Source of the DNA: a virus
Lineage: Duplodnaviria; Heunggongvirae; Uroviricota; Caudoviricetes
Virus record (IMG/VR): IMGVR_UViG_2663762849_000017
Strand: one strand, 5' to 3'
Length of the DNA: 11,721 nt
Of this stretch, positions 1 to 7,936 are shown piece by piece. A program made the translations under genes and the position numbers. The stretch's first letter is position 1. Each line of letters starts with the position of its first letter. Under the pieces are notes generated by a model. It made no database searches. It saw only the letters and a list, made by a program, of their open reading frames with translations, and was not told the DNA's origin.

Positions 1-1
1 A

Positions 2-142
2 GCCCGTACAGAGATCACTCATTACCGTATGCATGGCGCGGGTAGCGCCAACGATGGCGTCTACCGGACACGCCTGAATACATTTAGTGCAGCCAATACA
101 GTTATTTTCATCAATAACCGCCACCATCCGCGCTGGCGTTAG
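2..142 (+). CDS. Partial ORF (3' end only; 5' end lies outside the window); position is consistent with the end of a late antiterminator (Q-like) gene, but the product is not recognised
   Basis: Open frame from the window edge to TAG at 140-142, immediately upstream of a leader/terminator and a pinholin gene, which matches the lambdoid order Q-pR'-tR'-S-R. The sequence itself was not recognised; the assignment is positional only. Confidence 0.25.
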
Positions 143-179
143 CTCTTGCGCTTCGCCATCCAGCGGCTGCGGCTCGACT

Positions 180-260
180 CATTGGTTATTTGTTGAAGTT
201 TTCTTATGTATTTGTGGTGGTGTTTTGAACACTCGGTGGCATTCTCACAAATATCATTTA
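180..260 (+). promoter_or_regulatory. Candidate late promoter (pR'-like) / leader region upstream of the lysis cassette
   Basis: AT-rich stretch with imperfect sigma70-like hexamers (e.g. TTGAAC at 225-230) about 100 bp upstream of an intrinsic terminator and about 250 bp upstream of the holin start, as in the lambdoid pR'/qut/tR' layout. The hexamers are weak and the exact promoter is not resolved. Confidence 0.25.
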
Positions 261-322
261 GTAGTTTACGTACGTAAAAAATTGGTTATGCTGTTAAGAG
301 TGGTTACTTCGTCACACAGCTT

Positions 323-350
323 AAACCCGCCGTCGAGCGGGTTTTTCCAT
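323..350 (+). terminator. Rho-independent terminator (tR'-like) in the late leader
   Basis: Perfect 8-bp inverted repeat AAACCCGC / GCGGGTTT (323-330 and 337-344) around a 6-nt loop, followed by a T-rich tract TTTTCCATTTTTT. Confidence 0.65.
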
Positions 351-484
351 TTTTTGAGTCTCGATATTAGCTGATAACCCAATACCTGAGTTATTCACTG
401 ACTCCGAATCTGTTACGTTTCTGCCTTTATTGCGATACGTAGTATCCCCTTAATTTACACCCGCTTTGTCTGCGAGGTGGGGTT

Positions 485-700
485 ATGAAATCCATGGATA
501 AGTTAACAACGGGTGTCGCCTATGGCACCTCAGCAGGTAGTGCCGGGTACTGGTTTTTACAGTTGCTCGATAAAGTCACGCCCTCACAGTGGGCGGCAAT
601 AGGTGTGCTGGGTAGTCTGGTATTTGGCTTGCTGACGTATCTGACAAACCTTTATTTCAAGATTAAAGAAGATAAGCGTAAGGCTGCGAGAGGTGAATAA
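485..700 (+). CDS. S: Class II holin (pinholin), phage 21 S21-like, 71 aa
   Basis: ATG at 485 preceded by a GAGGTGGGG Shine-Dalgarno. The N-terminus MKSMDK carries the dual-start motif (Met1/Met4) typical of S21 holin/antiholin. Two hydrophobic helices are followed by a charged C-terminus [13 protein letters not shown]. The protein closely resembles the phage 21 pinholin as I recall it. Its stop overlaps the next ATG (TAATG). Confidence 0.85.
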
Positions 701-3700
701 TGTCGCCATCATTACGCAAGGCTATTGCTGCTATTGGTGGTGGGGCTGTTGCCATAGCGTCTGTGCTCATCACTGGTCCGAGTGGTGACGATGGCCTGGA
801 AGGTGTCAGCTACATACCATACAAAGATATTGTTGGTGTATGGACTGTATGTCACGGGCATACAGGAAAAGACATCATGCTCGGTAAAACGTATAAAGGC
901 AGCAGTAAGGGGCATACCCCGCGCGAAGCGAAGGACAACCTGAAATCCACGCAGTTACTGAGTGTGATCGATGCCATCAGCGAAGGGCCGATTGAAGGTC
1001 CGGTGGATGGGTTAAAAAGCGTGCTACTGAACAGTACGCCGGTGCTGGACACTGAGGGGAATACCAATATCTCCGGTGTCACGGTGGTGTTCCGGGCAGG
1101 TGAGCAGGAGCAGACTCCGCCGGAGGGGTTTGAATCCTCCGGCTCCGAGACGGTGCTGGGTACGGAAGTGAAATACGACACGCCGATCACCCGCACCATC
1201 ACGTCGGCAAACATCGACCGTCTGCGTTTTACCTTCGGTGTGCAGGCACTGGTGGAAACCACTTCAAAGGGTGACCGGAATCCGTCGGAAGTTCGCCTGC
1301 TGGTTCAGATACAGCGTAACGGTGGCTGGGTGACGGAAAAAGACATCACCATTAAGGGCAAAACCACCTCGCAGTATCTGGCCTCGGTGGTGGTGGATAA
1401 CCTGCCTCCGCGCCCGTTCAATATCCGGATGCGCAGGATGACACCGGACAGCACCACAGACCAGCTGCAGAACAAAACGCTCTGGTCGTCATACACCGAA
1501 ATCATCGATATGAAACAGTGCTACCCGAACACGGCACTGGTCGGTGTGCAGGAGGACTCGGAGCAGTTCGGCAGTCAGCAGGTGAGTCGTAATTATCATC
1601 TGCGCGGGCGCATTCTGCAGGTGCCGTCGAACTATAACCCGCAGACGCGACAATACAGCGGTATCTGGGACGGAACGTTAAAACCGGCATACAGCAACAA
1701 CATGGCCTGGTGTCTGTGGGATATGCTGACCCATCCGCGCTACGGCATGGGGAAACGTCTTGGTGCGGCGGATGTGGACAAATGGGCGCTGTATGTCATC
1801 GGCCAGAATTGCGACCAGTCGGTGCCGGATGGTTTTGGTGGCACGGAGCCGCGCATCACCTGTAATGCCTGGCTGACCACACAGCGTAAGGCGTGGGATG
1901 TTCTCAGTGATTTCTGCTCGGCGATGCGCTGTATGCCGGTATGGAACGGGCAGACGCTGACGTTCGTGCAGGACCGGCCGTCGGATAAGGTGTGGACCTA
2001 TAACCGCAGTAATGTGGTGATGCCGGATGATGGCGCGCCGTTCCGCTACAGTTTCAGCGCCCTGAAGGACCGCCATAATGCCGTTGAGGTGAACTGGATT
2101 GACCCGGATAACGGCTGGGAGACGGCGACAGAGCTTGTGGAGGACACGCAGGCCATTGCCCGTTACGGTCGTAACGTCACGAAGATGGATGCCTTTGGCT
2201 GTACCAGTCGGGGGCAGGCACACCGAGCCGGGCTGTGGCTGATTAAAACGGAACTGCTGGAAACGCAGACCGTGGATTTCAGCGTGGGCGCAGAAGGGCT
2301 TCGCCATGTGCCGGGCGATGTTATTGAAATCTGCGATGATGACTATGCGGGTATCAGCATCGGCGGGCGCGTGCTGGCGGTGAACAGCCAGACCCGGACG
2401 CTGACGCTCGACCGTGAAATCACTCTGCCATCCTCCGGTACCACGCTGATAAGCCTGGTTGACGGAAGCGGCAATCCGGTCAGCGTGGAGGTCCAGTCCG
2501 TCACCGACGGCGTGAAGGTAAAAGTGAGCCGGGTTCCTGACGGCGTTGCCGGATACAGCGTGTGGGGGCTGAAGTTGCCGACGTTGCGCCAGCGCCTGTT
2601 CCGCTGCGTGAGTATCCGTGAGAACGATGACGGCACGTATGCCATCACTGCCGTGCAGCATGTACCGGAAAAAGAGGCCATCGTGGATAACGGGGCGCAC
2701 TTTGACGGCGACCAGAGCGGCACGGTGAATGGTGTCACGCCGCCAGCGGTGCAGCACCTGACTGCCGAAGTCACCGCAGACAGCGGGGAATATCAGGTGC
2801 TGGCGCGCTGGGACACGCCGAAGGTGGTGAAGGGGGTGAGCTTTATGCTTCGCCTGACCGTGGCAGCGGATGACGGCAGTGAGCGGCTGGTCAGCACGGC
2901 CCGGACGACGGAAACCACATACCGCTTCACGCAACTGGCGCTGGGGCGGTACACGCTGACAGTCCGGGCGGTAAATGCGTGGGGGCAGCAGGGCGATCCG
3001 GCGTCGGTATCGTTCCGGATTGCCGCACCGGCAGCACCGTCGAGGATTGATCTGACGCCGGGCTATTTTCAGATAACCGCCACGCCGCATCTTGCCGTTT
3101 ATGACCCGACGGTACAGTTTGAATTCTGGTTCTCGGAAAAGCGGATTACCGATATCAGGCAGGTTGAAACCACAGCCCGCTATCTTGGCACGGCGCTGTA
3201 CTGGATAGCTGCCAGTATCAATATTAAGCCGGGCCATGATTATTATTTTTATATCCGCAGTGTGAATACTGTTGGCAAATCGGCATTCGTGGAGGCTGTC
3301 GGTCAGGCGAGCGATGATGCTTCCGGCTATCTGGATTTTTTCAAAGGCCAGATAACTGAATCCCATCTCGGCAAGGAGCTGCTGGAAAAAGTCGAGCTGA
3401 CGGAGGATAACGCCAGCAAACTGGAGGAGTTTTCGAAAGAGTGGAAAGACGCCAACGATAAATGGAATGCCATGTGGGGCGTCAAAATTGAGCAGACCGA
3501 AGACGGCAGGCATTATGTCGCGGGTATTGGCCTCAGCATGGAGGATACGGAGGAAGGCAAACTGAGCCAGTTCCTGGTTGCCGCTAACCGTATCGCGTTT
3601 ATTGACCCGGCAAACGGGAATGAAACGCCGATGTTTGTGGCGCAGGGCAACCAGATATTCATGAACGAAGTGTTCCTGAAGTATCTGACGGCTCCCACCA

Positions 3701-4287
3701 TTACCAGCGGCGGCAATCCGCCGGTATTTTCCCTGACACCGGACGGGCGGTTGACGGCGAAAAATGCCGATATCAGCGGTAACGTGAATGCGAACTCAGG
3801 GACGCTCAATAATGTCACGATTAACCAGAACTGTCGGATTCTGGGAAAACTGTCTGCCAACCAGATTGAAGGTGATATTGTCAAAACGGTGGGAAAAGCC
3901 TTTCCGAGAAATGGCAGTTATGCCAGCGGTACAATAACGGTCACTGTGTACGATGACCAGGCTTTTGACCGTCAGATAGTAATCCCACCCGTTCTGTTTC
4001 GCGGTGGTAAGCATGAAAACTTCAACAGCAACAACCAACAGTCATACTGGTATTCAACCTGTAAGCTGCAGGTACTGAAGAACGGACAGGAAATCTTTCA
4101 GCAACCCGCGACGGATGTCAGCAGGGTATTTTCATCCGTCATTGATATGCCAGCGGGACACGGCCATGTCACCCTGACTTTCAATGTTTCTTCATATGGT
4201 GCAAATAACTGGACGCCAACGACCAGTATCAGCGACCTTCTTGTTGTCGTGATGAAGAAATCAACAGCCGGTATCAGTATCAGTTGA
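700..4287 (+). CDS. J: Chimeric ORF: N-terminal ~65 aa of a SAR endolysin (R21-like lysozyme) fused in frame to a lambda J-like tail-tip host-specificity protein (residues ~66-1195)
   Basis: Residues 1-65 ([65 protein letters not shown]) match the signal-anchor-release domain and start of the catalytic domain of phage 21 endolysin. From [22 protein letters not shown] onward the protein is collinear with lambda gpJ (recalled from memory). There is no ATG at the position of the native J start, so translation depends on the R start. The ORF is uninterrupted over 3.6 kb. The last ~140 aa differ from the lambda J C-terminus and are lower in GC. Confidence 0.85.
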
Positions 4288-4305
4288 ATTTTATAACCCA
4301 AATAC

Positions 4306-4331
4306 GGGCGCCAGAAATGGCGCCTTTTTTA
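4306..4331 (+). terminator. Rho-independent terminator between J and stf
   Basis: GGCGCC (4307-4312), loop AGAAAT, GGCGCC (4319-4324), followed by TTTTTT (4325-4330). Confidence 0.6.
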
Positions 4332-4345
4332 TTTGTGGAGTGAAT

Positions 4346-6406
4346 ATGGCAGTACAGATTTCAGGCGTGCTGAAAGACGGTGCAGGAAAACCAATACAGA
4401 ACTGTACTATTCAGCTCAAAGCAAAGCGTAACAGCACCACGGTACTGGTGAACACGGTGGCCTCTGAAAATCCGGATGAAGCCGGGCGTTACAGCATGGA
4501 TGTTGAGTATGGCCAGTACAGCGTCACCCTGCTGGTTGAAGGTTTTCCGCCTTCACATGCCGGGACCATTACCGTCTATGAAGGTTCCAGACCAGGTACG
4601 CTGAATGATTTTCTCGGTGCCATGACGGAAGATGATGTCATGCCGGAGGCATTGCGTCGTTTTGAGGTAATGGTGGAGGATGTGGCACGCAACGCTGAAG
4701 CCGCCTCTCAGAGCGCAGCGGCAGCAAAGAAATCAGAAACAGCAGCGGCATCGTCCAGGAACGCGGCGAAAACATCAGAGACGAATGCAGGTAACAGCGC
4801 GAAAGCGGCAGCTTCTTCAAAAACAGCCGCACAAAACGCAGCAACAGCGGCAGAACGTTCAGAGACAAATGCCCGTGCGTCAGAAGAAGCCTCCGCAGAC
4901 AGTGAAGAGGCTTCCCGCCGTAATGCAGAGTCAGCCGCTGAAAATGCCGGAGTCGCCACCACAAAAGCGCGGGAGGCTGCAGCAGACGCAACAAAGGCCG
5001 GGCAGAAAAAGGATGAGGCTCTGTCGGCAGCGACACGAGCTGAAAAGGCGGCAGACCGCGCAGAAGCCGCAGCGGAAGTGACTGCAGAGCCCTATGCGAA
5101 TATAGTGCCGCCGCTGCCTGATGTGTGGATACCGTTTAACGATTCACTGGATATGATTGCGGGTTTTTCTCCGGGCTATAAAAAAATAGCTATTGGTGAC
5201 GATGTGGTTCAGGTCGCCAGTGATAAACAGGTTAATTTCAGTCGCGCATCAACGGCAACATATATCAACAAATCTGGCGAACTGAAAACGGCGGAAATTA
5301 ATGAGCCGCGATTTGAGTGTGATGGCCTGCTTATTGAGGGACAAAGAACGAACTACATGCTCAATTCGGAAAGTCCAGCCAGCTGGGGGAAGTCATCAAA
5401 CATGGATGTGCCCGAAACCGGGACGGATAGTTTTGGTTTTACTTATGGAAAGTTTGTCTGCAACGATTCTCTGGTTGGGCAAACTTCGGCTATTAATATG
5501 GCATCAATTGCTGCAACAAAGTCAGTTGATGTCTCAGGCGATAACAAGTACGTGACAACCTCATGCCGTTTTAAAACAGAACGACAGGTAAGGTTACGTA
5601 TACGGTTTGATAAGTATGATGGTAGTGCAACAACTTTTCTTGGCGATGCGTACATTGATACGCAAACGCTTGAAATTAATATGACAGGTGGTGCTGCCGG
5701 CAGAATTACGGCACGAGTCAGGAAGGATAAGACCACGGGCTGGATTTTTGCAGAGGCAACGATTCAGGCAATTGATGGAGAGTTAAAAATAGGCTCTCAG
5801 ATACAGTATTCTCCTGAGCAGGGTGGGGCAACAGTATCTGGTGACTATATTTATCTTGCCACCCCACAAGTAGAGAATGGACCATGTGTATCATCATTTA
5901 TTATTTCAGGAGGCAGCGCAACGACAAGAGCCAGTGATTTGGTTAGTATCCCCACCAGAAATAATCTTTATAAGTTACCATTTACTTTTTTACTTGAGAT
6001 TCATAAAAACTGGGATATTGCACCAAACGCCGCACCCCGCGTGTGGGATATAGCAGCAGCCAATACCGGGCAATCAGCAATTGCAGCAATCAACAGAGGT
6101 AGTGGTAAGTTATATATGAGTCTGTCAAACCCTTCAGGCTCGTATGTTAATAGCGCAGCGACAGATGTATTTGCAGAGAAAACCACATTTGGATGTATTG
6201 CAAAAGCTGATGGTCACTTTCATGTGGTGACAAATGGTAAAGCGGTTAATGAAGTTTATTGTGAATATAATGGCGTGACCGCTGATAAAAATATCCGATT
6301 TGGAGGGCAGACGAATACTGGAGAACGACATCTGTTTGGCCATATTCGCAATTTCCGCATATGGCATAAAGAATTAAATGACAGGCAATTAAAAGAGGTC
6401 GTATGA
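4346..6406 (+). CDS. stf: Side tail fibre protein (lambda Stf-like N-terminus, Ala/Ser-rich shaft, divergent lectin-like C-terminal domain)
   Basis: The N-terminus MAVQISGVLKDGAGKPIQNCTIQLKAKRNSTTV...GRYSMDVEYGQYSVTLLVEGFPPSHAGTITVYE matches the lambda Stf N-terminal domain as I recall it. It is followed by an Ala/Ser/Glu-rich repetitive shaft. The C-terminal ~430 aa are encoded by lower-GC DNA and end in NFRIWHKELNDRQLKEV, a motif typical of concanavalin-A-like/LamG jelly-roll domains. I place the start at ATG 4346 with GGAG 6 nt upstream; the ORF track starts at GTG 4340. Confidence 0.8.
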   Translation: MAVQISGVLKDGAGKPIQNCTIQLKAKRNSTTVLVNTVASENPDEAGRYSMDVEYGQYSVTLLVEGFPPSHAGTITVYEGSRPGTLNDFLGAMTEDDVMPEALRRFEVMVEDVARNAEAASQSAAAAKKSETAAASSRNAAKTSETNAGNSAKAAASSKTAAQNAATAAERSETNARASEEASADSEEASRRNAESAAENAGVATTKAREAAADATKAGQKKDEALSAATRAEKAADRAEAAAEVTAEPYANIVPPLPDVWIPFNDSLDMIAGFSPGYKKIAIGDDVVQVASDKQVNFSRASTATYINKSGELKTAEINEPRFECDGLLIEGQRTNYMLNSESPASWGKSSNMDVPETGTDSFGFTYGKFVCNDSLVGQTSAINMASIAATKSVDVSGDNKYVTTSCRFKTERQVRLRIRFDKYDGSATTFLGDAYIDTQTLEINMTGGAAGRITARVRKDKTTGWIFAEATIQAIDGELKIGSQIQYSPEQGGATVSGDYIYLATPQVENGPCVSSFIISGGSATTRASDLVSIPTRNNLYKLPFTFLLEIHKNWDIAPNAAPRVWDIAAANTGQSAIAAINRGSGKLYMSLSNPSGSYVNSAATDVFAEKTTFGCIAKADGHFHVVTNGKAVNEVYCEYNGVTADKNIRFGGQTNTGERHLFGHIRNFRIWHKELNDRQLKEVV
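4680..5090 (+). repeat. Ala/Ser/Glu-rich low-complexity repeat region inside stf (fibre shaft)
   Basis: Reiterated motifs such as AAxxSETNA / AASS / AAENA in the translation. The GC-rich repetitive codons produce spurious ORFs in other frames and on the opposite strand. Confidence 0.6.
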
Positions 6407-6681
6407 AAGATTTAACTTTGAAGTTTCATGACAAACTGCAGTTTAAGGCCTTCCTGTCATCTCTTGGCTGGGCGGAAGATGAAGACCTCCAGAATAAACT
6501 GTTAGTTGATGAAATTGGTTTCACCTACACAGAAACAGGGGTAACAGAAGAGGGAGAACCTGTCTGTATCCGGAATGATGGTTATTTTGTCAACATTCGC
6601 ATTCTTGATGACTTGTTTGATGTTTCTGTATTCTCTGATTATGTCGTGGAGCTGGAAACACCGCTTCGGGAATGGAGCTGA
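6403..6681 (+). CDS. Hypothetical acidic 92-aa protein, translationally coupled to stf; possible tail-fibre accessory/chaperone by position only
   Basis: ATG at 6403 overlaps the stf stop (ATGA), with AAAAGAGG 4 nt upstream. The product is acidic and has no hydrophobic segment. It does not resemble the lambda Tfa N-terminus and its family was not recognised. Confidence 0.5.
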   Translation: MKDLTLKFHDKLQFKAFLSSLGWAEDEDLQNKLLVDEIGFTYTETGVTEEGEPVCIRNDGYFVNIRILDDLFDVSVFSDYVVELETPLREWS

Positions 6682-6693
6682 AAGGAGGAAATA

Positions 6694-7134
6694 ATGGATA
6701 TAAGCCCCTTACTTCATGCACTTTGTGCTGTGGCTGCGCAGATACTGGTTGGTCTTTTTACCGGAAACTGGGCTTACGGAGCGATAGCCGGTTGTACGTT
6801 CTTCATTGCGCGTGAACATACCCAGGCAGAATATCGCTGGATTGAAATGTTCGGGCATGGCAAGCGAATGAATATGCCGTGGTGGGGCGGTTTTGATCCG
6901 CGTGCTTGGGATGTGGCAAGCCTGATGGATTTTGCTGTGCCGGTGGTGGCGTGTCTGCTGGTCTGGCTGTTGGTTAATCGTGGGCGAAAAAAGGTGAGCT
7001 GTATATGCAACGGAGGAAGAAACCCCGTTGCTGGAAGCCAGGAAAAAGTATCGGGTGTTGCTGTCCTCGGATGTTGTGCTAATTGGGTGATAACAGATCC
7101 TGTGTATGGGAGTTTCCCTTTTTGCGTGCGTTGA
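6694..7134 (+). CDS. Hypothetical small integral membrane protein (about 3 predicted TM helices), 146 aa; C-terminal extent uncertain
   Basis: Strong Shine-Dalgarno AAGGAGG 5 nt before ATG 6694, 12 nt after the previous stop. Hydrophobic segments are LLHALCAVAAQILVGLFTG, AYGAIAGCTFFIA and VASLMDFAVPVVACLLVWLLV, followed by RGRKK. The last ~18 codons overlap the convergent sitD 3' end, so the true C-terminus is uncertain. Confidence 0.5.
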   Translation: MDISPLLHALCAVAAQILVGLFTGNWAYGAIAGCTFFIAREHTQAEYRWIEMFGHGKRMNMPWWGGFDPRAWDVASLMDFAVPVVACLLVWLLVNRGRKKVSCICNGGRNPVAGSQEKVSGVAVLGCCANWVITDPVYGSFPFCVR

Positions 7135-7936
7135 TGCTGGTAACGGCAAACGTCATGATGAACAAAACCGCGAATAAGACGACAATCGTCGGAGCTGGTG
7201 CGCTGTCGATAAAAAAGGACAACCAGACACCAGTCATTGACACTATTACCGATATGCCAGTCGCCAGTAGGAGCGCAATATGAAAGCGTTGTGTCAGGAG
7301 TACCGCAATGGCGCCAGGCGCAATGAGCAGAGAAATGGAGAGAATGATACCTACCGCTTTCAGCGTCGCCACAATGGTCAGAGAGACCATGCACAGCAGC
7401 CCATAATGCAGCCATCTCGTATGCAAACCGCTTACCTGCGCCTGTTGATAATCAAAGCTGAACAGCAAAAAATCCCGCCATTTTACGCTAATAACAAGTG
7501 TAACCAGCCCGGCAATAATCATCGTCTGGATTATATCGCCGATGGTTATCCCGAGCATGTCGCCGAAAAGAATATGGTCAAGATGTACGTCTGGTTTGAC
7601 TGCAATATACAAGATCAGACCTGCGGCAAACATGCCAGAAAAAACAATCCCCATCACTGTATCTTGCTTGATTCGGCTGTTGTCTTTCAGGTATCCCGTC
7701 GCCACCGCGCAGAATACTCCGGCGACGAATGCCCCTGTAGCCAAAGGTAACCCCAGAATCCAGGCAAGCACGATGCCAGGAAAAACCGCATGACTCATCG
7801 CGTCACCCATCAGTGCCCAACCTTTCAGGACCAGAAAGACTGACAGCAGCGCACAGGGTATGGAAACTACCAGTGAAATCAGCAGTGCGTGACTCATAAA
7901 GGTGAACTGCAGTGGCTCCAGTAATAATGCCATCAT
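7079..7936 (-). CDS. sitD: Mn/Fe ABC transporter permease SitD
   Basis: 285-aa polytopic membrane protein, last gene of a four-gene operon (binding protein, ATPase, two permeases). Its start overlaps the sitC stop by 4 bp. Confidence 0.85.
   Translation of the reverse strand: MMALLLEPLQFTFMSHALLISLVVSIPCALLSVFLVLKGWALMGDAMSHAVFPGIVLAWILGLPLATGAFVAGVFCAVATGYLKDNSRIKQDTVMGIVFSGMFAAGLILYIAVKPDVHLDHILFGDMLGITIGDIIQTMIIAGLVTLVISVKWRDFLLFSFDYQQAQVSGLHTRWLHYGLLCMVSLTIVATLKAVGIILSISLLIAPGAIAVLLTQRFHIALLLATGISVIVSMTGVWLSFFIDSAPAPTIVVLFAVLFIMTFAVTSINARKKGNSHTQDLLSPN

Follow-up and report, generated by a model that had tools for sequence, protein, structure and literature searches.

A pinholin gene beside an endolysin–J fusion in a defective phage 21-like prophage carrying sitABCD at icd of Escherichia coli

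Gene content of the window and its phage relatives

The stretch of DNA analysed here (the window, 11,721 nt) was identified by sequence comparison as belonging to a defective lambdoid prophage at icd, of which it forms the right-hand part. Its first 178 bases (1..178, minus strand) are not prophage; they are an internal fragment of the chromosomal gene rsxB, with a 100% match to rsxB in 5,425 genomes, and abut the leader of the lysis operon at 178/179. This join of rsxB to base 179 was found neither in complete E. coli genomes nor, by exact-pattern scans, in GTDB representative genomes and JGI metagenomes, and the draft contigs with the identical fusion protein begin 2 nt left of it. Because bases 1-178 are rsxB, the window is without Q and without the probable late promoter. 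It continues with the leader, the pinholin gene essD, the head of an endolysin gene (R') and the sequence of the tail protein gene J, all described below.

After J, the right arm begins with the side tail fibre gene stf (4340..6406, plus strand; PF08400, E 5e-67), inside a 98.3%-identical block common to phage 21 that includes the stf of that phage. Two small phage ORFs follow (6403..7134, plus strand; phrog_1361 and phrog_1443), the second of which is lengthened from 97 to 146 codons relative to phage 21 by loss of its stop (TGA to CGA at 6985). Next come the genes annotated as sitDCBA (7079..10528, minus strand), an iron/manganese ABC transporter carried as prophage cargo (moron) at a position equivalent to that in phage 21 and Perceval. 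The arm closes with the phage-borne icd' fragment and a terminator (11441..11660, plus strand), to which the PGAP icd fragment of locus L001 (20263-20430) maps, and then the right end of the prophage (attR); the homology to phage 21 ends where phage 21 has attP. Phage 21 (OL657228.1) matches positions 894-10665 of the window at 94.7–98.3% identity, and the J-stf-sitDCBA-icd' arm ending at attP is 95–98% identical in the two. The window has neither the tRNA genes of phage 21 nor its Q21-type promoter region: ARAGORN found no tRNA in the window, whereas phage 21 has two between pR' and S. In addition, the window holds no Rfam family and no tblastn match to Q or Bor of phage 21.

Phage Perceval (E. 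coli LF82), which is infectious (PMC9928086), also carries sitABCD cargo after the tail fibre, and its left arm (alpha/beta hydrolase, ninB/ybcN, ninE, ybcO, rusA, Q, porin and S) is that of the complete genomes with the junction described below. The main differences are that Perceval is complete and has another endolysin (177 aa) as well as an extra ORF between S and the endolysin, whereas the window element has an R21-type endolysin head and a deletion of about 18 kb. Judged from its sequence, the element is an ordinary decayed phage 21-like prophage of an island type already catalogued in ExPEC, as 'PAI-icd' or the sitABCD island at icd; such icd-linked Sit islands measure 12–61 kb depending on the strain (PMC7545054). 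The components of the window are already known.

The leader of the late (lysis) operon (179..484, plus strand) is of the DLP12/Perceval type, as assigned from DNA identity: positions 179-687 are 99.4% identical to Perceval, and positions 182-895 are 91.5% identical to DLP12 of K-12. A terminator-like hairpin lies inside it at 323-353, and its layout is that of a lambda-like promoter-leader-terminator suited to Q antitermination. A scan of positions 1-1000 found no sigma-70-like promoter, while intact contexts share a conserved ATGGCA-N17-TATAAT at 46-74 nt to the left of base 179; a candidate late promoter is therefore probably located just beyond the left end of the window. The absence of Q, as assumed in the preliminary description, holds for the window and not for its natural context, since every inspected complete genome with the junction has quuD about 1.9 kb upstream and keeps the whole intergenic region. 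In K-12 the DLP12 lysis operon, which has the same leader, is reportedly transcribed and regulated by QuuD, RpoE and Hha, as cited in PMC7918800.

The pinholin gene and the endolysin remnant

The gene essD (485..700, plus strand) encodes an intact S21-type class II holin (pinholin) of 71 aa. Its product matches the phage 21 S holin family PF04971 over profile positions 1-63 of 64 (121 bits against a cut-off of 26, E 2e-35) and the holin families of PHROGs. It is identical at 71 of 71 positions to both K-12 EssD and the S holin of Perceval, and at 61 of 71 (86%) to S21; the DNA of S and R' is just 84% identical to that of phage 21. The dual start consists of Met1 at 485 (71-aa antiholin form) and Met4 at 494 (68-aa holin form); the N-terminus M1-K2-S3-M4 (MKSMDK, the same in S21) places an extra positive charge on the antiholin form, in agreement with the M1-K2-x-M4 dual-start motif, whose role is given in PMC9636201 and in the phage 21 annotation. 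By Kyte-Doolittle analysis the profile superimposes on that of S21: residues 8-27 score about 0.1-0.6 and residues 36-50 form a peak of 2.1, as predicted for a weakly hydrophobic, releasable-type TMD1 and a strongly hydrophobic TMD2. An intact S21-like pinholin with a dual start had been described from the sequence, and the comparisons bear this out. Around the dual start, the RNA of positions 462-520 folded no better than shuffled sequence (z = +1.17), and the equivalent region of phage 21 is likewise unremarkable, so no sdi-like element is claimed.

The start of R' (700..894, plus strand) overlaps the essD stop (TAATG), as in phage 21. R' comprises codons 1-65 of an R21/RrrD-type SAR endolysin: its residues 1-65 match residues 1-66 of R21/RrrD (PDB 3hde and 4zpu; E about 1e-36, query residues 1-67), with 61 of 65 identities to R21 and one Ala missing. 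The Gly/Ala-rich SAR (signal-anchor-release) helix is kept. So are the catalytic residues E34 (799-801), D43 (826-828) and T49 (844-846), which fit the lysozyme motif E-X8-D-X5-T (taken from PMC9239132), and the alignment thus confirms the residues that had been named in the preliminary description. The match to PF00959 (Phage_lysozyme) is limited to profile positions 3-45 of 125, and about 100 C-terminal residues of the lysozyme fold (complete length about 165) are missing; R21 residues 67-165 have no tblastn match anywhere in the window. Hence the view that most of the fold is lost is correct, and R' would not be a functional lysozyme. No spanin genes were detected downstream of R' either, as had been stated: phage 21 Rz and Rz1 gave only chance hits in the window (tblastn, E 0.99 or higher). 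Compared with phage 21, the window element is therefore without R residues 67-165 and Rz/Rz1, and its R' is fused to J. DLP12 (essD-rrrD-rzpD/rzoD) shares the identical EssD protein, the conserved porin-essD leader including the terminator hairpin and, in complete genomes, the Q-porin-essD layout. It differs in keeping full-length rrrD and the spanins and in sitting at argU, whereas the window element sits at icd, has lost R codon 66 through J codon 2, and carries J, stf and sitABCD.

The R'::J junction and its distribution

The endolysin had been described as cut to about 65 residues. Indeed 65 R codons are left, but there is no stop at this point and the frame stays open to 4287, giving a chimeric ORF R'(1-65)::J(3-end) of 1195 codons (700..4287, plus strand; RefSeq 'gpJ', WP_044694526.1). 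In comparison with phage 21, the deletion junction lies at 894..895 (plus strand), at a TA common to R (…ACGTATA/CC…) and J (…GGGTA/AAGG…); R-type matches stop at 895 and J-type matches begin at 894. The end at 960 given to the cassette in the preliminary description is meaningless, as the breakpoint is 894/895. A crossover at the hexamer GGTAAA, also common to R and J, was considered and rejected, since the sequence places the crossover 10 nt further on, at TA. The J part (tail tip / central fibre; 895..4287, plus strand) extends from codon 3 to the normal stop. Its own translation start is gone, the ribosome-binding site and J codons 1-2 being deleted. Chimera residues 66-1195 correspond to lambda J residues 3-1132 (PDB 8iyk, of which J residues 3-44 align to chimera residues 66-107), all J domains are present, each at E < 1e-35 (FNIII-A, Phage-tail_3, Ig_J, Ig_J_second, Phage_Tail_Tip and Ig_GpJ_C), and the part is 90.9% identical in amino acids to phage 21 J residues 3-1160. 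As for its assembly partners, no homologue of I was found in the window and the interval between R' and J is free of other tail-shaft or head genes.

Of 5,426 complete E. coli genomes, 79 (1.5%) carry the junction; it was also found in four metagenome contigs and in none of the GTDB representatives. In most carriers the chimera has 1196 codons because of an additional Ala at window position 725. Copies with the junction differ by about 1 substitution per 3.6 kb, with one non-synonymous change and the 3-nt indel over 3.6 kb, and some are already decaying: at least three genomes have IS4 within the J part, and one locus (L011) has a frameshift. Patchy recombination was seen in another (L014). 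Since the copies barely differ and some already carry IS4 or a frameshift, the deletion is recent.

It could be imagined that the chimera itself is functional, either as a Sec-targeted, membrane-anchored J that blocks the tails of incoming lambdoid phages or in a new envelope role. The 1195 codons are open and the frame survived the further 3-nt deletion, the start codon and the coupling to essD are intact, and the SAR topogenic signal is the one nearly identical to that of R21. However, an in-frame join has a prior of 1 in 3, the 3-nt change, set among repeated Ala codons (AIAAAIGGG), points to slippage, and carriers exist in which the J part is interrupted by IS4 or shifted in frame. Moreover, the normal folding of J and its assembly with I, K, L, M and H take place in the cytoplasm; these partners are all deleted here, and J binds the outer face of its receptor, out of periplasmic reach. 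We consider a function of the chimera extremely improbable.

Origin of the lone pinholin and its possible roles

Considering the order of genes in the relatives, the element very probably derives from a phage 21/Perceval-like prophage in which one deletion of about 18 kb left a neutral, low-expressed pinholin gene and the R'::J fusion. The ancestor would have had the order nin genes, Q, porin, S, R, Rz/Rz1, bor, cos, head and tail genes, J, stf, sitABCD and attR. A single illegitimate recombination at the 2-bp TA microhomology would then have joined R codon 65 to J codon 3, with loss of the remaining part of R, of Rz/Rz1, bor and cos, and of every packaging, head and tail-shaft gene. The join would be in frame by chance (1 in 3), so that R' and J became one ORF translationally coupled to essD. 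If the chimera is made, the SAR helix would anchor or Sec-export it, and it would have no assembly partners. Such an element could no longer lyse cells or produce virions, and the sit operon would thereby be fixed in the chromosome. This alters the picture of a lysis cassette 'decapitated' locally, because the truncation of the endolysin is one end of the prophage deletion.

On this account, essD would be a leftover of the deletion. Under strong transcription its product would build up in the inner membrane and, on triggering, abolish the proton-motive force with no lysis, while at basal expression it should stay below the triggering threshold and be harmless; triggering needs about 7x10^3 pinholin molecules (PMC9636201). 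The formation of heptameric pinholes that depolarise the membrane and are lethal on triggering is predicted from the 100% identity to S of the infectious Perceval. From this identity to the holin of an active phage we infer that the pinholin is competent, and likewise we take R' to be non-muralytic, expression to be low and retention to be neutral. The retention of a lone pinholin, which had been regarded as notable, needs no selective explanation given the recent deletion: at about 1 substitution per 3.6 kb, only some 0.06 changes per lineage are expected in the 216-bp gene, so its intactness is uninformative on selection, and a K-12 mutant without R and Rz/Rz1 that keeps the same EssD is viable (PMC7918800). 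The gene is identical in 10 of 10 other junction-bearing loci checked, and neutrality and weak selection cannot be distinguished statistically at so little divergence. Selection on essD after the deletion was also considered on the basis of its differences from K-12 essD (8 synonymous, 0 non-synonymous), and was rejected since these reflect divergence among live phage modules, shaped by selection in live phages; Perceval has the identical protein. Among the options raised in the preliminary description (a toxin-like or exclusion role, or silence), a silent essD would be the most likely.

In the K-12 mutant mentioned above, vesiculation is 2.4-fold up and the output of outer-membrane vesicles returns to wild type once essD is also removed (PMC7918800), so a lone EssD can have a phenotype. 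Thus EssD, under a QuuD/RpoE-controlled leader and at sub-lethal levels, might serve as a domesticated modulator that perturbs the inner membrane or envelope, for example by hypervesiculation, as reported for the DLP12 module in K-12. The identical protein, the closely similar leader DNA and the presence of quuD with the whole intergenic region in complete genomes are in favour of this. However, the reported roles of DLP12 in peptidoglycan turnover and biofilm are ascribed to the complete S-R-Rz module, and here that module is destroyed; selection beyond that of live phages was not seen, and the promoter and Q are both absent from the window. Such a role is unlikely.

Another possibility is an exclusion or abortive-infection device, in which the compatible Q of a superinfecting lambdoid phage would trans-activate the leader, and the extra pinholin would depolarise the membrane early, causing premature lysis or death and a smaller burst. 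Depolarisation-triggered action of holins and pinholins is lethal and premature (PMC9239132), and the lambda-like leader and the element's own quuD, kept in complete genomes, would fit such a device. On the other hand, none of the PADLOC defence models matches EssD, the chimera, the tail fibre or the two small ORFs. Furthermore, the identical module is the ordinary lysis system of intact prophages, the deletion being the sole distinction of the window copy, and the low frequency of the junction and its recent origin argue against a maintained defence. We regard this as very unlikely. Just as little probability is given to a variant in which a lambdoid Q, or QuuD induced by envelope stress, would allow read-through of the leader, and EssD, perhaps with a membrane-anchored R'::J, would depolarise or jam the inner membrane early and so protect the sit-carrying lineage. 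If an exclusion or envelope role of a lone pinholin were true, the element would offer a simple natural system in which to test holin-only modules; the present findings give no sign of such a role.

The preferred reading, a deletion remnant, carries little biological weight overall. It would be a further case in which one internal deletion fixes a cargo prophage in the chromosome, the cargo here being sitABCD, which is recognised as a fitness factor of ExPEC. For annotation, the RefSeq/PGAP name of the 1195/1196-aa chimera, 'phage attachment tail tip protein J', conceals that an endolysin remnant and a deletion junction are part of it. One recent ExPEC sub-lineage of the sit island is cleanly marked by the junction sequence CTCGGTAAAACGTATAAAGGCAGCAGTAAGG.

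The pinholin gene and the endolysin–J fusion

The ORF at 485-700 (essD) is intact with 71 codons. Its product falls in the phage 21 S holin family, with a Pfam PF04971 score of 121 bits (cut-off 26), and is also matched by the holin families of PHROGs. EssD of the window is identical to EssD of E. coli K-12 (71/71 residues) and to the S protein of Perceval, a phage of E. coli LF82, and has 61 of 71 residues in common with S21. Its N-terminus, MKSMDK, carries the Met1/Met4 dual start, its second hydrophobic segment retains G40, S44 and G48, a motif important in S21, and its hydropathy profile is superimposable on that of S21. On all sequence features tested, the pinholin qualifies as a true S21/EssD-family protein; the family score, MKSMDK and the identity to S21 confirm the preliminary description in its claim of an intact pinholin with a dual start.

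The stop of essD overlaps the start of the second ORF at 700 (TAATG), and residues 1-65 of that ORF (R', 700-894) match residues 1-66 of R21/RrrD (PDB 3hde and 4zpu; E about 1e-36). R' includes the Gly/Ala-rich SAR helix and E34, D43 and T49, which conform to the lysozyme motif E-X8-D-X5-T (PMC9239132), and the earlier recognition of this helix and these residues is borne out by the alignment down to the numbering. The endolysin had also been described as cut to about 65 residues, which is right for the R-type part; however, near residue 65 the ORF has no stop and runs on in frame as far as 4287, a total of 1195 codons. Residues 66-1195 of this chimera (R'::J) are a lambda-type J from its residue 3 to its normal C-terminus (PDB 8iyk), 90.9% identical to residues 3-1160 of phage 21 J. 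The full domain set is found in the J part, which has neither a start codon of its own nor its partners; RefSeq labels the chimera gpJ, without more. Because R' has the catalytic motif but covers just positions 3-45 of the 125 in the Pfam profile, no muralytic activity is expected of it, and its lysozyme fold is incomplete. In a tblastn search of the window, R residues 67-165, Rz, Rz1, Bor, Q and tail gene I left no trace; the cassette is without spanins, and the absence of Rz/Rz1 reported before stands. The PHROGs family phrog_6543 (71 positions, unknown function) matches R' residues 1-65 (window 700-894, E 2e-28). Other phage genomes apparently have truncated SAR-endolysin heads annotated as proteins in their own right.

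Origin of the element and its deletion junction

Phage 21 (L008, OL657228.1) has S21/R21/Rz/Rz1 at one end of its map and J, the side tail fibre, two small ORFs, sitDCBA, an icd' fragment and attP at the other. Its J-to-attP arm is 94.7–98.3% identical to window 894-10665, and the homology ends at about 11660, exactly at the phage 21 attP. The leader, essD and R' are nearer to DLP12, the cryptic K-12 prophage with essD-rrrD-rzpD/rzoD (91.5% identity over window 182-895), and to Perceval (99.4% over 179-687). Moreover, Perceval, which is an infectious phage (PMC9928086), carries the same sit cargo, and its alpha/beta-hydrolase-ninB-ninE-ybcO-rusA-Q-porin-S arm also precedes essD in complete junction-bearing genomes. 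From the homologies to phage 21 and Perceval, the window is a remnant of a phage-21/Perceval-like prophage at icd. 'PAI-icd (Sit system)' is listed in a review with sizes of 12 to 61 kb across ExPEC strains (PMC7545054), and the components, the island and the phage relatives are all described already. In addition, the classical laboratory phage 21 itself bears sitABCD cargo beside the side tail fibre (L008 21967-25416), a direct link between the model phage of pinholin work and the ExPEC sit islands. The interval from sitA to the icd' fragment differs: in phage 21 it measures about 1.5 kb and contains several small hypothetical genes (L008 25553-27053), and in the window it is an unrelated stretch of about 0.5 kb (10665-11164).

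Matches to R-type DNA stop at 895 and those to J-type DNA begin at 894, whether the comparison is with E. coli genomes, phages or phage 21 itself. At the breakpoint, R reads …CTCGGTAAAACGTATA|CCAAAGC…, J reads …GGAATGGGTA|AAGGCAGC… and the window reads …CTCGGTAAAACGTATA|AAGGCAGC…, so the join is an illegitimate recombination at a 2-bp TA microhomology. A GGTAAA hexamer common to R and J lies 10 nt upstream and, according to the same sequences, was not the crossover site used. Mapped onto phage 21, the deletion starts at 40280, spans cos and ends at about 15697; the roughly 18.3 kb lost comprise the remainder of R, Rz/Rz1, bor, cos, the terminase genes, every head gene and every tail gene up to J codon 2. 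The R'::J junction is a routine deletion scar, and it seems not to have been pointed out before.

Regulation and possible activity of the lone pinholin

Where the context is intact, the porin gene and essD are separated by a 590-bp spacer that is conserved in the ExPEC island, K-12 DLP12 and Perceval. This spacer has one sigma-70-like site, a candidate late promoter (ATGGCA-N17-TATAAT; 8927-8955 in the junction-bearing locus L001) conserved in all three, which falls outside the window, 46-74 nt left of base 179; a terminator-like hairpin lies about 210 nt downstream of it (window 323-353). The promoter-leader-terminator layout is similar to lambda pR'-6S-tR', but here it follows the porin moron and is not beside Q. 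Such a layout would fit Q-dependent read-through. The preliminary description had assumed the absence of Q, which holds for the window by tblastn, whereas in those complete junction-bearing genomes that were inspected quuD, the Q gene of the element, is located about 1.9 kb upstream.

EssD is presumably a competent pinholin, since an infectious phage uses an identical protein. At high expression it would depolarise the inner membrane and kill the cell with no lysis, and S21-68 does both (PMC9636201, PMC9239132). Pinholin triggering takes of the order of 7x10^3 molecules per cell (PMC9636201), so EssD made at a basal level should do no harm. In K-12, a mutant that lacks ybcS and rzpD/rzoD but keeps the same EssD is viable, its sole reported effect being a 2.4-fold, essD-dependent rise in vesiculation (PMC7918800). 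The cassette has neither a complete endolysin nor spanins, and the element has no packaging, head or tail-shaft gene. The chimera is translationally coupled to essD and, if made, would be inserted into the membrane by its SAR helix via Sec. J is normally assembled in the cytoplasm with partner proteins; since these are deleted, in our view the chimera arose by accident, from a one-in-three in-frame join. The defence-system models gave no match. A toxin-like, envelope or exclusion role of the lone pinholin is possible, but the evidence gives no reason to expect one.

Left edge, spread and decay

An internal rsxB fragment (1-178, minus strand) directly adjoins the essD leader. This 178/179 join was not found in 5,426 complete E. 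coli genomes, GTDB representatives and JGI metagenomes, and in all four metagenome contigs with the R'::J junction the sequence left of 179 is porin context. Two draft contigs with the identical 1195-aa protein start 2 nt left of the join, suggesting an assembly-graph branch point and an assembly join. A real inversion across the terminus region, on the other hand, would produce exactly this join, and in strain SK1144 the two pieces are separated by 444 kb and oppositely oriented, a geometry that fits a 444-kb inversion.

The R'::J junction is present in 79 of the 5,426 complete genomes and in four metagenome contigs, and its carriers are nearly identical to each other. Over the 3.6-kb chimera, the window differs from the junction-bearing loci L002 and L012 by one non-synonymous substitution and a 3-nt in-frame deletion at 725, which takes out one Ala of the SAR helix (AIAAAIGGG to AIAAIGGG); only 4 of the best 60 junction-bearing complete genomes have this deletion in common with the window, and the others encode 1196 aa. 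The retention of a lone pinholin had earlier been thought notable, and essD is indeed unchanged in 10/10 other junction-bearing loci examined; however, given a divergence of about one change in 3.6 kb, no more than some 0.06 changes are expected in its 216 bp, so identity among carriers is uninformative on selection and the claim is not supported. Compared with K-12 essD there are 8 synonymous and no non-synonymous differences, a pattern that reflects how purifying selection acts on this module in live phages. Decay is seen in at least three genomes with IS4 within the J part (L002 9318-10663 and similar genomes) and in L011, where a frameshift leads to a stop after 152 codons of the chimera. 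In L014, differences clustered at codons 237-452 and 751-809 indicate recombination with another J allele. Furthermore, at window 6985 the TGA stop of the 97-codon membrane-protein gene of phage 21 is now CGA, and the ORF at 6694-7134 thereby has 146 codons and extends antisense into the 3' end of sitD.
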